Positions 3,001-9,000 of a stretch of 10,155 nucleotides of DNA are shown piece after piece. The stretch lies in the UHGV virus genome UHGV-0264998, one strand, 5' to 3'. The DNA comes from a virus. Numbering within the stretch: position 1 is the stretch's first letter; the number at the start of each line of letters is the position of its first letter. The position numbers were made by a program.

Positions 3001-6000
3001 TGGCCTTTTGCAGAGCGAACGATAATGTCAGCGCGTATCGCCTCAGTGATTACCTTGCGGGGTCTGGCTCGATTCTTCTCGTGCCGTTCACGTTCGCGCA
3101 TCCGCTCGGCCATCTTCGGCGGCAGCACAGGGGAAAGCCCACGGCTAACGCCAGATGTGCGGGTGCCGGATGTGGCAGACCGTGCAACGATATAAACCGC
3201 TTCGTCTGGATTGAAAACGTGCGGCACACGCTCAGGGTAAACATGATCACATCTACCCAGCGGCAAGGCGAAATCCGGGCGCACGTCAGCGACACGCTCC
3301 ACAGCATGGAAATTACAGGTACTCATTACGAACCTCGGTTAATTAAAAACAGGCTTTCAGATGCCGCGCAGAATGCGGCTTGCGGGGACTCATGCGCATA
3401 GATTGGTGTGGTAGTACCGGGTCGGTGCGCACTCGGTCTTGCAGGGCGCATTCCACAGTTGGGCGTTAGCGACCAGCACGTTTGCCAGCGGAGCGCTGCG
3501 CAACCAGAGCGCGGTATTGTTCATCGTACTGGCGATGGCCGGGGCCATACCCTGATTGCTGCGCCCACTGCGAAAGCTGGTCATACGCTGCTATAAACTC
3601 AGCATGTGACATTCCGACAGGTTGCGCGGCAGTCTGGCCGTTCGGGACGTAACCGGTAATGGAACCGCCAGCCATACGCTCTTGCAGATACTGAACCGCA
3701 CGCGACATCTGCGCGGGATCGCCAGACATGACCATCCGTTCAAGGGTTGATTGCGTCCCGGCGTCGAGCGTGCCAGCGTACTGCAACATCGCGTCAACTG
3801 TACCCTGACCTAGCTGGCTTTCGACAGACTGGTGAAACTGCCCCATCAGCCCATGAAGTTCAGGAGTCAACTCAACAGTGGTGCCATCCTGTAATTGCAG
3901 TGTGTCGCCCACTTGCGCCCCAGCGCTGTCAGCGTTCTGGTCTTGCTGATTTGCGATATTGCCATTATTCCATTGTCCGCCATCATTGCCGTTAACGGGT
4001 TGGGTACGGAGGAAATCAGCATCAGCAGGCGCAGAGCTAAAGCGGGATGCGCCATTGTCAGCGCCAACAGGTGCGGCCATGTACGGCGATTGCTGCGGTG
4101 CAGCATCAGCACCGGAAAGGTACGGATTAACATTCTGGTCAGTCATAATCAATTATCTCCATAAGCGTTGGCTCGGCGGTGTGCCAGTTCAAGAAGCAGC
4201 ATGTGCGCTGGAATGCAGCGCTCAGGGATACGCTTCTGCCCGTGAATCATCTTGTTAACGTCTTGACGGTCAATCTGATAAACACGGGCAATGTCGATCT
4301 GGCGGAGGTTCAGGATTTCAGAAAGGAATTTCAGTTGCTCGCTACAGGCAATAGCAGTTCGCGGTTGCACTAACACGGTAATCATCGGTATGTCCTCAGT
4401 TAAATTTCACAGTTAAATCAGGCCACGTTTGCGTAGCCATCGACGTTCGCCCGCTGAACCACGCGGGCGCTGGCGGCGTCCACGGTCTGCGGCTGGCTGT
4501 TCTGGTGCGGCCTCGCTTCGGAGATTCTGCGTCAGGATATCCCAGCCCCGCGACTCAATCGGGGCGTATCCTTCACGCTGTTCGTCGAGATTGGCGTACC
4601 GCGCCGGGTCGAATGCAGGGTTAATGATTTCGTTGTTGTCGCCCATCACGCTACCCCGCTGTATTTGGAATTAACGGATTCCAGAATGTCAGGATAACCC
4701 CAGCGATTTCGCAGGCAGCGCTGCACATGCGCGACTACCTCGACAGGGACACCCAGCTTTTCGGCGATCTCGGCGGCAGGCCAACCGAATCGCTCTAACT
4801 TGTGGATTTCATCTAAATCAGTAGGCACTAACTTGCGCACTACTTTCGGCTTCGCTGGCTTCACCTTCAAGGGTTTCTGTACCGGGTGCGTGTGGGCGTT
4901 GCTAAAGCGGGAATGGGCGATAGCCAGCACCGTCTCAGGGCGAATCAGCATATCGCGGGCAATCATAAACTCTGTATCGCGGTGCAGCTTGCCGGGCTTA
5001 TAGCGGTTGCGGATGGCGTTGTACTCCGCCAGAGTAATATCAGCATCGTCTTTCCAATGTTCGGCCAAGTCATCGACATAGACGCCACGGATTACAGCAT
5101 CAATATCGGTCAGGGTATGACCTGTCTCCGCTGCAATCTCTTCATTGTTCTTAAGGTGCTTATGAGCCAGCGCGTTAATGCGCTGGATATCGGTAATACT
5201 CAAAGTCATAAATTAAACTCCGAATCAAATTTGATCTGGTCAGTAACCAGCGTATGAATCAGCGCAAGGCTTGACGCGGTATGTGTGCCCGACTTGCGGG
5301 CGTTGTCGTACATGGTGCGTGCGGCGCTCTGATAGTTCGGCGGCAGGGTTGCAAACCATGCTCTAAACTCTGCGGGTGTCATTGCTCGTCATCCTCAAAT
5401 ACACGGTTAAATGACGTGTCCGGCGCTTCTACGGCGTTGGCCTTGAGGAAGTTGACCGCACTGGATAACTCCGCTGCGGCCATGCGCGACTCGCCAGCCT
5501 TATCTTCCTCAAGGCGACGGATGAGAGCCTCAAGAAGCAAGCCTTTTAAGCGCCATGTTTCATTTTCAAACTCGGTCTTTGTCATTGGTCATCTCCATTA
5601 AGTGGCAACAGGCCTAGCGCACGGATGTGCTGAATCACTTCTTGATGCACGGGCTTCGGCAGAAACAAACGGCGGGCAATGGCGGCGTAAACTTCATCAG
5701 GAGTCTTGCGTACCGGATGCACCCGGCCATTGAAAACCCGGTCGGACAATCGGACGGCTTTCCAGCGACGCGAGCCATCCGGCCTTTTCATGCGGTTCAG
5801 TACAGCGGCCAGACACTCCCACGGCTCGCAATCATTCAGCAGGCAATATCGCTCCAGCGGTGTAGATACCTCGCGAATGATGGCCTCACGATTAAGGGTC
5901 TTGCGATGAGGTTCGGCCAGTTCATCCCAGTTGTACCCATTCAGGGCGAAAGCTAGTTGTGCGGTGATGAGCGCATCCGCACGCGCAGCACGACGCTGCG

Positions 6001-9000
6001 CATGTTCGGTAACAGGCATATGATTAACTCCAGAGAATCAGGGAGAGCCTTTCGACTCAGAGGTATTTAGCGATGTACTGCCAGTTGCAGTTTTCAGGGC
6101 GGTAGAAGTAAGCAAGCTCATCAGGCGCAACATCCAGCGCCAGCGATGACCACAGCAGAAAAGCGCGGGCAGGTTCCCCATCGCGCCCGGCTCGTCCAAT
6201 CATCTGAACAAGATCAGGCAAATCATCGGGGACGTATGTCACGACAACGTTACGGATATCAGGAACATCAGCACCCAGCCCGAAGGCTTTAGTAGCAATA
6301 AGAATCGCGCCCGGCGTAGAGGCAAACCACTCAGCGTTTGCGTGGCGTTCCTCGTTGCTCAGGTGCATCGTCTTCGAGTGATATGACCGCGCCCGGTCGC
6401 CCAAGAGTTTCAGGTACGCCCGCAACGTTTTAAGGTCATTGACGAGAATAAGCGTCTTCTCTTCTTTCGGCAGAGCCTCGACCAGACCAATAGCCGCTCG
6501 GAAACGTTCGCGGCACTGTCTGACTGGCGTCAACTGGATATTCTCGCGAGCAACATCAGCGCGGAATGTTACGTAATCGCCACGGCAGCCAAGCGACTCC
6601 ATTAAACTGCGCTCATTTTCGCGTAGCAGCGTAGCCGTAAACACGCAGCGTTGAGCCGAAGGAAAGGCATTCTGTAGTGTGTGCTGCATTGCGTCGTAAG
6701 CTGGGCGGAAATCCCAGTCTTTGACCGTGTGTGCCTCATCGATAATAAAACGATCAACGCCATAAGCCATCAGCGCCGCGAGAACCTGACTCGACGGAAC
6801 CAGATGTTCAGGCGAAACGACTGCAACCCGGAACGCCCCGGCAGCCAGCCCCGCCAGTTGTTGCGCATTGCGGTGCCTCGGCAGCTTGTCACCAAATGCC
6901 ACAGCGTGAACGCCAGCCTCCCGCAACTGGCGGAGAATCTGACGCTTAAGGGTATTAGTAGGAACAACGATAACAGACAGGCCAACGCCAGCGCGGGATT
7001 CATAAATCAATGGGTAAGTGAAGGCAGCGCTTTTGCCATACCCAGTAGGCAGAACGGCAAGCACATCACTGCCACGGGAAAAGATCGCATCAGCAACAGA
7101 CAATTGCCCCGGCCTCCACTCCAGCCCATCAGGTGGCAGCAGGCTAACGCGTGCGTTTCGGTCACAGCGAGCCAGCGGGCGGAACTCATACGGCGTAGTA
7201 TTCAGTGGCGGCACAGACGGCGAAGCAGCCAAGCCGTTCGGGTCACAATGATGATTTGTACTATTAAATCTATCTTCGGTAGGCTTCGACTCTCCACACC
7301 AAAATTGACGAAACTCCCCTGAGTCTCCGTAGCGTTTGAAATCTGCGTTACGCATCGCTTCCAGTTTACTCATGCCCCTGTTAATGCGGCGCATGGTCTT
7401 CTCATCGCAAATCAGGAACTCGCGGCAGGCTTTGAGAAAAGCATTCTGTCCGGTTGTTGATTCCGGCACGGCGTGCTCTCGCGGTTTCAACGCGGCATCG
7501 TCTACGCGAACATCGGGAAAATCTGGCGGCAGCGGGTCAACATAACGAGCAGGCTTTTTATTTAGCCATTGCTCAATCTCAGCGCGTCGGCAGTGAATCG
7601 CGTCACCGGGCTGGATGACTTGCCGTAACCCCTTATCAGAACGCTGTTTTTGCTTTTTAGGCTGCACACCGTGTATCGTTCTCCACTCCCGCAAGGTCAT
7701 CGCGGAGCCATCTGCATTGTAATAAAACTCTTCGGTCTTTGTGTTGTATGCCGCCTTAACGGGTTTACGCTTTACGGGGCATATCTTGGAACGCCGAATA
7801 ACAATCCCGTCAGCGATCATTTGCTGTACATCTGCATTTGCGGTATTGAGCGGGCCAGCATTGGCAGCCTGCGCAAGCAAACGGCGTAGGTTCGTTGGCA
7901 TGGTGAAATCTCCAAAAATTAAGGTGAGTTAAGAATGGGGCGCAGGATGGAAGCGCCGAGAGTGTGGCAGCCTGTCCTTCTTAGTAGATGCTTTCATTGC
8001 ATTGGCGTCGATGATCCGTCTCCCCACAGTAGACACCTTTATTTGAACGATATTTAATCAGATCCATTGCAAGCCTTGCTCTATCTGACTTTACGGGTAA
8101 TTAGGTGATAACTTTTGGTAGGTTTGGCGGAACAATGGAATGGATGCGGTTAGTAGCGGCATTGTGTGTACCGTATCCCAATATAGTCACTTTCATCGGG
8201 TGGAATCCGGCAGGATGCCAGACGGCAGAACGTGAACGTAGTAGGGCAGGTAACAGACAATAGACCGTGACGGCGTACTATAGCTGGCAGTAGTACAGCA
8301 GGCAGTAAGACCAATGACCAACGGCTAAGACCTGAAAGGAAACGAACAAGAAAGATGATTGAATGCTACAGAAATGAATGAAGATGTTATGAAGAATACC
8401 GTACCGATATCAGGATAAGATTGAATAAAGTAAGAATACCGATACTGAGTACCGTCCCACTACACCTCCCCGCCGCGTTGCCTGCCACGGCAAGCACGGT
8501 TGCGTAGAGTGGCCGAGCATCAGCAGCGGGCAAAGACCGGGAATGAGCCAAAGGCGATGGAGCGGGCTGGAGCACAGCGAGAAGCGCAGCCAGTGGAGAG
8601 CGTGAAGCGATAACACTGATTAGGAGATGGGGATGTAGGGGAAGAACCCTTTTTTGTACATGTATTTAAAATGCAACTTTAAAGAGAGCGAAGCGCTCTT
8701 ACACTGCTTGGGATGAGAGAGTGAAGGGAGAGAAACCTTTATTGTACATGTACTAAAGATACATCTTTAAAACAGCTCAACCAAGTGATGCCACTCCGTC
8801 TCCTGTCTGGCTTTGAGACTGGACAACACAGCCTTTGATCCCTTCCCCTGCCCCATCCCTCGAATTGTTCAGTGATAAATCACATTCACAATCTGATCTC
8901 GATGTTCATCGTCTGGCACGGCTAAAGCCCCGCCATCTCTTCACATCGAGAGCCGCGAGTAAAACGAAAACACATTACAAATCATAGCATTACAACATGA

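Follow-up and report, generated by a model that had tools for sequence, protein, structure and literature searches.

A conserved block of five small genes in a satellite-like island of Enterobacteriaceae includes a likely shortened relative of the T7 gp18-type small terminase subunit

Here, we analysed a 10,155-nt stretch of the virus genome UHGV-0264998 (the whole stretch is called the window below) and found that five small open reading frames (ORFs) on its minus strand, named p145, p68, p58, p187, and p77 after the lengths of their products in amino acids (aa), are genuine, conserved, ordered, and co-oriented genes. The five genes are co-transcribed in the middle of a single, co-directional operon of ~8 kb, which belongs to a tRNA-integrated island of ~15 kb. 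One of them, p68, encodes a likely homologue of the N-terminal half of the T7 gp18-type small terminase subunit (TerS), without the C-terminal ~45 residues. In our proposal, to which we give a probability of about 45%, the block would serve the island as a module for recognising DNA and redirecting packaging. The gene content of the island points to a satellite that parasitises virulent T7-supergroup phages of the Bonnellvirus (J8-65-like) type.

Five conserved genes and their junctions

All five ORFs are present in the window, on the same strand and with the lengths reported in the first-pass annotation. The chain begins with p145 (145 aa; 6019..5582, minus strand), continues with p68 (68 aa; 5585..5379, minus), p58 (58 aa; 5382..5206, minus), and p187 (187 aa; 5209..4646, minus), and closes with p77 (minus), which ends at 4413 and has either an ATG start at 4646, giving 77 aa, or a GTG start at 4649, giving 78 aa. 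The junctions had all been described as ATGA overlaps, and this holds for the first three, which read ATGA on the coding strand (window 5582-5585, 5379-5382, and 5206-5209). The fourth reads GTGATG (4649..4644, minus); here the TGA stop of p187 overlaps the ATG start by 1 nt (TGATG), and a 4-nt overlap exists only as GTGA, if the GTG start is used.

The same genes are recognised well beyond the window. All five are annotated by NCBI PGAP in a 93%-identical chromosomal island of E. coli, and they recur in independent gene calls (NCBI, JGI, ENA, and Logan assemblies of relatives). We compared 13 island copies from Escherichia, Citrobacter, Cronobacter, Enterobacter, Kluyvera, Kosakonia, and Trabulsiella, across which the block proteins are 56-100% identical and the gene order is kept. 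The median pairwise ratios of nonsynonymous to synonymous substitution rates (dN/dS) are 0.15 for p145, 0.12 for p68, 0.18 for p58, 0.18 for p187, and 0.17 for p77. A Shine-Dalgarno sequence (GGAG, GAGG, or GGGG) is conserved 6-11 nt upstream of every block gene, within the end of the preceding gene.

A distant element, the 3,025-nt Logan contig ERR3679939_1012 (L032), was also reached, through an exhaustive profile search with the p145 family; its helicase is 42% identical to that encoded just upstream of the block in the window. Its genes stand in the order helicase, p145-like, p68-like, p58-like, and p187-like, with identities of 33%, 50%, 51%, and 51% for the four block proteins, and the block genes overlap by 4 nt (ATGA), 4 nt (ATGA), and 20 nt. 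The synteny of the block is identical in at least nine genera and in this relative. These results indicate that the five ORFs are genuine genes, because the calls by PGAP and other programs, the conservation across copies, the dN/dS values of 0.12-0.18, the Shine-Dalgarno sequences, and the synteny of the distant element all agree. The distant contig also indicates that the sampled island copies cover only part of the breadth of the family.

The 58-aa ORF, which the first-pass annotation had added in order to make the chain continuous, is a real gene. It corresponds to the PGAP protein WP_000187174.1 in E. coli and was called in every relative, with a dN/dS of 0.18; its homologues are 58-63 aa long in all relatives and keep a Shine-Dalgarno sequence of the form GAGG or GGAGG. 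Loss of this frame or of the overlaps in homologous elements had been named as an outcome that would speak against the chain, and both are kept in the 13 copies and in the distant element.

The conserved feature of the junctions is tight abutment, and the exact ATGA is not. Among the 13 copies, the first junction overlaps by 4 nt in 11, by 1 nt in one, and by 8 nt in one; the second overlaps by 4 nt in 10 copies and by 1 nt in three; the third overlaps by 4 nt in seven copies and by 14-17 nt in five, and is interrupted by an HNH gene in one; the fourth reads [A/G]TGATG in 13 of 13. All 51 ordinary junctions overlap by 1-17 nt, with no gaps, and the sole break is the HNH insertion, which is confined to one lineage. 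In this Citrobacter copy (L002/L003, 9465-9989), an HNH_3 endonuclease gene has been inserted precisely at the border of the p58 and p187 homologues, where an 11-nt gap remains. Three HNH_3 paralogues are scattered through the same copy, as is typical of a mobile homing endonuclease gene.

The overlap chain is ordinary compaction of phage-like operons, and the pattern alone carries little information. Such a run is not unusual, because comparable overlaps occur in Escherichia phage glasur (Autographiviridae, Bonnellvirus), in which overlaps are present at 21 of 53 same-strand junctions, are 4 nt long at six of these, and include an unbroken series of five. Translational coupling is plausible, given that the overlap is conserved in the 13 copies and in the distant element, and the overlaps probably allow some coupling by re-initiation. 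The earlier wording that the arrangement strongly suggests coupling is overstated, however, since each gene has its own Shine-Dalgarno sequence and initiation therefore need not depend on an upstream ribosome. The fixed stoichiometry that had been read from the same arrangement is unsupported.

The identity between copies is uneven within the block. In an E. coli copy (L001), the helicase, p145, and p187 are 95-98% identical to those of the window, and p68, p58, and p77 are 72%, 84%, and 62% identical, respectively; these mosaic identities indicate frequent recombination between island variants inside the block.

A shortened small-terminase relative and the other block proteins

The p68 protein is acidic and, at 68 aa, shorter than phage TerS proteins, which have 89-101 aa. 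It matches the Pfam family of T7 gp18, PF11123 (DNA_Packaging_2), with an E-value of 8e-6 over profile positions 7-48 of 79, and the same family is matched by all 10 distinct p68 variants and by the copy in the distant element. Across the p68 family the match covers positions 4/7-48 of 79, as compared to 4-78 in T7 gp18 and 4-76 in glasur TerS. Among PHROGs, p68 matches phrog_891, small terminase. Its top match in the glasur proteome is TerS (BLASTP E 0.003; profile hidden Markov model E 4e-6), and comparison by hhalign with an alignment of Bonnellvirus-like TerS gave a probability of 86.6% and an E-value of 4.5e-6, with residues 13-53 of p68 aligned to residues 11-57 of TerS. The two proteins have in common a motif around AAELS..[NF]FLK.N. 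The first-pass annotation had assigned no motif to the block apart from a helix-turn-helix (HTH)-like segment in the 187-aa protein; that segment stands, and the relation of p68 to T7 gp18-type TerS had been missed.

The assignment has its shortfalls, which also count against a packaging role built on it. The PF11123 score of 26.3 bits is below the gathering score of 27.5 bits, so the curated threshold is not reached; only ~60% of PF11123 is covered, which falls short of a full-length domain; and the hhalign probability is 87%, not above 95%. Profiles of the p68 family and of Bonnellvirus-like TerS found no gp18-family chain in the PDB, where the p68 profile had no match of any kind. We nevertheless consider homology likely, although formal membership of PF11123 is missed, because of the E-value of 8e-6, the matches of all variants, and the hhalign result. 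A direct profile search of 5.8 billion proteins with p68 returned only island copies and no phage TerS, and the link to TerS was therefore made by Pfam and by profile-profile comparison.

The genomic setting of p68 is different from that of phage TerS. TerS is followed by the gene for the large terminase subunit (TerL) within 0-24 nt in seven Autographiviridae phages outside the T7 genus, and in T7 itself two spanin genes lie between them; p68 adjoins no TerL gene, and there is none among the island proteins scanned. The idea that p58 is the missing C-terminal half of a split TerS was rejected, with an hhalign probability of 1%. For p58, there is no match in Pfam, PHROG, NCBIfam, or PADLOC, no relative is detectable outside the island family, and a PDB profile search gave only spurious matches to designed coiled coils.

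Two other block proteins have features of DNA-binding proteins. In the AlphaFold2 model of p187 (pLDDT 80), three HTH units at residues ~5-51, 60-98, and 129-183 are joined by a basic, flexible, KP-rich linker at ~99-128, and the units have a recognisable tri-helical fold of the multi-HTH, bipartite transposase/Myb kind. On this model, p187 is a predicted DNA-binding protein with three HTH folds. Its N-terminal unit is mosaic between copies, and the middle unit is near-invariant. The p145 protein is a basic (isoelectric point, pI, 9.4), all-helical orphan with a weak HTH-like fold, in which H38, C59, and C64 are invariant. PDB sequence-profile searches with p187 and p145 gave weak matches only (E at least 0.008). 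For p145, Foldseek against the viral structures of BFVD found nothing below an E-value of 1, and an exhaustive profile search of 1.84 billion representative proteins returned only 14 matches, all from one narrow family.

The last protein, p77, is very hydrophilic (GRAVY hydropathy index -1.17), with an acidic N-terminal half (pI 4.1) and a very basic C-terminal half (pI 12). After a variable stretch it ends in a near-invariant tail, RPRGSxGERRWLRxxGL[IL] (window 4413-4480), which looks like a candidate short linear binding motif; a comparable tail did not turn up in the glasur proteome. No relative of p77 was found in Pfam, PHROGs, NCBIfam, PADLOC, or the PDB, or by tblastn against phages. Scans of NCBIfam, PADLOC, and PHROG with p145, p58, and p77, both as single sequences and as whole alignments, yielded nothing usable, and none of the five block proteins matched PADLOC, which holds defence-system models only; no match there speaks for an anti-defence role, which may still exist. 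Searches by tblastn with p145, p68, p187, and p77 against 50,697 phage records likewise found nothing, which indicates that the block proteins are not ordinary phage genes.

The island and its links to Bonnellvirus-type phages

The operon opens with a gene for a superfamily 2 (SF2; DEAD/DEAH) helicase of 614 aa (6057..7901, minus; Pfam DEAD and Helicase_C, phrog_16), which ends 37 nt before p145 and which in the relatives always lies directly before the p145 homologue. The five block genes follow, and after a gap of 27 nt come genes for a Cro/YdaS-like HTH protein (78 aa; 4149..4385, minus), a scaffold-like protein (3466..4152, minus; an ORF of 228 aa, with a likely ATG start at 4146 that gives 226 aa), a 137-aa protein with a C-terminal HTH, and a major capsid protein of the Autographiviridae type (1719..2759, minus; probable start at 2714, giving 331 aa). 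An HNH endonuclease, two unknown proteins, and endonuclease VII are encoded after the capsid gene. Upstream of the operon are a resolvase gene and a 1.2-kb gene-free stretch (7902-9101). The block had been placed in an early operon; it lies instead in the middle of the operon of a satellite-like island, between the helicase and the scaffold and capsid genes.

The helicase matches the PADLOC model 'DpdF' (PDLC02858) with an E-value of 1e-274 over the whole model. A place in a Dpd DNA-modification system was considered and rejected, as the DpdF model alone matches and there is no other dpd gene. The PDLC02858 model was probably built from the helicase of this island, and PADLOC-style annotation could therefore mislabel the island.

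Full copies of the island continue with variable cargo and then a tyrosine integrase gene; the cargo includes restriction-modification genes, AbiTii, and DUF3800. In E. coli, the tyrosine integrase is at one end of the island and a tRNA-Leu gene at the other. A 15,224-nt Logan contig (L005) carries a 28-nt direct repeat, TGCCGGTTCGAGTCCGGCCTTCGGCACC, which is the 3' end of a tRNA, at 1-28 and at 15197-15224, and this repeat defines the att sites and the size of the element. Among 5426 complete E. coli genomes, 148 (~3%) carry the island, always as a single copy, and the named homologues are all from Enterobacteriaceae, save for one stray label. Scans of the island proteins with Pfam, PHROG, and NCBIfam brought out no gene for a portal, TerL, a tail, or lysis. 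Neither the block nor the whole window matched the phage records by megablast, an Rfam scan of the window found no RNA family, and scans for sigma-70 promoters and terminators were not above shuffled controls.

Several side observations concern the island as a whole. In many assemblies the element is on a contig of 10-20 kb. Defence cargo lies between endonuclease VII and the integrase, in the form of Eco47II or NmeDI restriction-modification or of AbiTii (L004, 15187-17219; L006, 15295-16212; L029, 15039-17190), a position that matches the cargo hotspots of known satellites. In one genome, a P4/D5-type primase gene (Zn_Ribbon_Prim, Toprim, D5_N; L031, 267-2600) is directly beside the island, and this site may be a tandem satellite integration hotspot.

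Several island proteins resemble those of Autographiviridae and in particular of glasur. The capsid protein matches phrog_267 (E 2e-70) and Autographiviridae-type capsid chains in the PDB (E 1e-80); it is 57% identical to the glasur capsid and matches 774 phage records, mostly from phages of Klebsiella, Acinetobacter, and Pseudomonas. The C-terminal 100 residues of the scaffold-like protein align with residues 312-410 of the glasur scaffolding protein, glasur_40 (411 aa), which is their top match in the glasur proteome (BLASTP E 0.004), and the top glasur match of the island endonuclease is the glasur endonuclease. The hosts of phages with Bonnellvirus-type TerS (Escherichia, Enterobacter, Cronobacter, Kosakonia, and Pantoea) largely overlap with the host genera of the island.

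The gene-free stretch holds further similarities to glasur. A short-word blastn of the window against glasur brought out a 19-nt motif, ATGAAAGTGACTATATTGG (8196..8178, minus), which is 277 nt upstream of the helicase ATG and points into the operon; it fits the consensus drawn from a motif that is repeated four times in glasur. There is one match in the window and there are four in glasur, with 1-2 mismatches, where shuffled sequences expect none. Three of the four glasur copies lie at boundaries between genes, in the orientation of the genes, and one of the three comes right after the RNA polymerase (RNAP) gene. Degenerate copies are found at 8042..8024 and 7997..7979 in the 5' untranslated region, and variants occur at similar distances in 9 of the 13 island copies. 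The motif resembles the core of the T7 promoter class. We regard it as a candidate promoter for the RNAP of a helper phage, or, together with the degenerate copies, as a candidate set of promoters for different helpers. A search of glasur for repeated exact 12-mers had brought out no phage promoter motif.

Next to this motif is a 62-nt block (8194..8255, with no strand assigned) that resembles DNA close to the right end of Bonnellvirus genomes. Its identity to glasur 42387-42448 is 82% (pairwise E 6e-11), and a 45-nt section is 87% identical to DNA of Kosakonia virus Kc261 (E 4e-4 in the whole phage collection). This block may be a mimic of a packaging or replication signal. Farther upstream, two tandem 88-nt direct repeats that are 72% identical (8596-8771) each have a TGTACATGTA-type palindrome near the 3' end and form a candidate origin or binding array. 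The gene-free stretch has blocks that are conserved in other island copies.

The satellite anatomy of the island is suggested by the integrase and tRNA site, the Bonnellvirus-like capsid, scaffold, and TerS genes, the lack of portal, TerL, tail, and lysis genes among the proteins scanned, and the motif and 62-nt block in common with phage. The island has the general features of a satellite, namely an integrated element of ~7-20 kb with integrase and att repeats, and a partial virion set with helper-derived genes for morphogenesis and packaging, here the capsid gene, the scaffold C-terminus, and the TerS fragment.

Possible role of the block and comparison with known satellites

That the island is a satellite, that its helper is a Bonnellvirus-type phage, and that the block acts in packaging are all inferred. 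In the proposed packaging module, p68 would be derived from TerS and retain the N-terminal half of the gp18 fold, p187 with its three HTH units and p145 with its HTH-like fold would supply sequence-specific DNA binding, and p58 and p77 would be small adaptor or inhibitor proteins. The block would be expressed from a helper-RNAP promoter and would direct the helper TerL to island DNA, block the packaging of helper DNA, or both, and the heads would be built from the capsid and short scaffold proteins of the island. In a wider account, which we hold more tentatively than the module assignment itself, the islands of E. coli, Enterobacter, Cronobacter, and related genera may be an undescribed family of capsid-encoding satellites of virulent, Bonnellvirus-like phages of the T7 supergroup, with the block as the core of packaging specificity; the helper RNAP would switch the operon on via the copied promoters, and p68, p145, p187, p58, and p77 would retarget the helper TerL so that island DNA enters small heads.

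Besides the shortfalls of the p68 match, several points weigh against the packaging proposal. The module assignment rests on p68 and on position, because four of the five proteins have no informative homologue. The position of the block directly after the helicase fits a role in replication equally well, and the HTH proteins could simply be transcription regulators. The case for induction, replication, and packaging of the island by a phage is circumstantial and comes from the shared 19-nt motif and 62-nt block; the promoter-like motif is absent from 4 of the 13 copies at up to 4 mismatches, and its orientation relative to the 62-nt block is opposite in the island and in glasur.

The main rival is a replication module, in which the five proteins would assist the neighbouring SF2 helicase by providing an initiator that binds the origin (p187 and/or p145), a loader, and control of copy number. 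They would act on the repeat-rich, gene-free stretch upstream, and p68 would be a TerS relic put to a new purpose. The p145 gene is always within 11-45 nt of the helicase gene, even in the most distant relative, and the stretch at 7902-9101 holds the tandem 88-nt repeats with palindromes and the conserved blocks. Multi-HTH proteins are typical initiators, and SaPIs and PICIs place their replication genes before their packaging genes. However, Pfam, PHROG, and NCBIfam scans linked no block protein to a known family of initiators, primases, or loaders, the sole assignable protein is related to packaging, and origin binding by p187 or p145 is itself only a prediction. We regard this replication reading as improbable, if still worth weighing.

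Unlikelier still is a module for interference, take-over, or regulation, the idea favoured in the first-pass annotation. The proteins would inhibit the TerS or TerL of the helper, its late transcription, or host defence and restriction, or the HTH proteins would regulate only the late genes of the island, and no island DNA would be directed into capsids. A TerS fragment without its C-terminal part could be a dominant-negative partner of the helper TerS, and p77, very hydrophilic and with a conserved short C-terminal motif, has the look of a peptide-like binder. Satellites commonly carry such inhibitors, for example Ppi in SaPIs. Gpi has this role in PLE (PMC11417361). Against this stand the lack of any match of the five proteins to PADLOC defence models and the fixed, syntenic character of the block, which is under purifying selection across genera; accessory genes caught up in an arms race less often show this pattern, although mosaic variants exist. 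The notion that the five genes came together by chance, or are false ORF calls in what is left of a decaying prophage, with meaningless overlaps, might be drawn from the four proteins without database annotation and from the frequency of overlap runs in phage-like DNA. Spurious ORFs are ruled out by the conservation data, and any such decay is extremely improbable: each ORF has a low dN/dS (0.12-0.18) and a conserved Shine-Dalgarno sequence, the same synteny recurs in at least nine genera and in the relative whose helicase is 42% identical, and the island, intact and with its integrase and att repeats, is a single copy in each of the 148 E. coli genomes that carry it.

If the satellite account is true, a satellite of strictly lytic T7-like phages is resident in common strains of E. 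coli and Enterobacter, and satellite biology would extend to the best-studied family of lytic podoviruses. It would provide a natural case of helper sensing through a phage RNAP promoter and a new way of hijacking the gp18/gp19-type terminase, the small subunit of which is still poorly understood. There would also be a bearing on phage therapy, as the islands could block therapeutic Autographiviridae and could spread the restriction-modification and Abi cargo that they carry. The specific mechanism would lie in the five-gene block.

The closest parallel in arrangement is PLE, the Vibrio cholerae satellite of the lytic phage ICP1, in which three consecutive small genes, Gpi, GpsA, and GpsB, together with mimicry of the pac site, control the packaging motor of the helper (Boyd & Seed 2024, PMC11417361). 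The likeness consists in a run of consecutive small satellite genes, which manipulate the helper packaging motor in PLE and are proposed to do so here, in a short stretch of satellite DNA that copies helper DNA, and in a virulent helper phage, which is inferred for the island. In contrast, Gpi is a TerL-binding protein for which no relation to TerS is described (the Gpi and Gps proteins were compared with the block by description only), PLE remodels the coat protein of its helper whereas the island encodes its own capsid, and the island block is known from sequence alone. As compared to the TerS of Autographiviridae, p68 aligns with residues 11-57, but it is shorter, is below the Pfam cut-off, is not followed by a TerL gene, and sits in a chromosomal island rather than in a phage.

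In the packaging modules of SaPIs and PICIs (TerS-SaPI and Ppi; Rpp in E. coli PICIs), the satellite turns the helper terminase towards its own DNA and blocks helper packaging by means of a protein that is homologous to TerS or binds it. The island resembles them in encoding a likely TerS homologue, although theirs is full-length and belongs to other TerS families; no homologue of Ppi or Rpp was detected in the island. The cfPICIs are similar in being integrated and of similar size, with their own capsid, an HNH endonuclease, a TerS-like protein, and no tail or lysis genes (bioRxiv 10.1101/2022.09.08.507074). However, cfPICIs encode a complete set for the head and packaging, with portal, protease, TerL, TerS, and connectors (PMC13612085), whereas the island has the major capsid protein, a short scaffold, and a TerS fragment only; its capsid is of the T7-like podovirus lineage, and its replication gene is an SF2 helicase, not a primase-replicase of the PICI type. 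PICMIs, which are minimalist satellites of virulent marine phages, are also small integrated elements that apparently depend on a virulent helper, but they have no capsid-related genes and their gene content is unrelated (PMC10803314).

We found no description of the island family in the full-text literature, the coverage of which was incomplete. SatelliteFinder covers four families, PICI, cfPICI, P4-like, and PLE (PMC10085698). The markers of these families, among them AlpA with a primase-replicase, the full cfPICI head set, and sid, psu, delta, and alpha of P4, gave no match in the Pfam, PHROG, and NCBIfam scans of island proteins, and SatelliteFinder itself was not run. The element thus has no marker genes of P4-like satellites, PICIs, cfPICIs, or PLE. 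Hijacking of packaging is a kind of phage-satellite strategy that is already known, and the interest of the present block lies in its context and in its likely TerS-derived gene, not in the ATGA chain.

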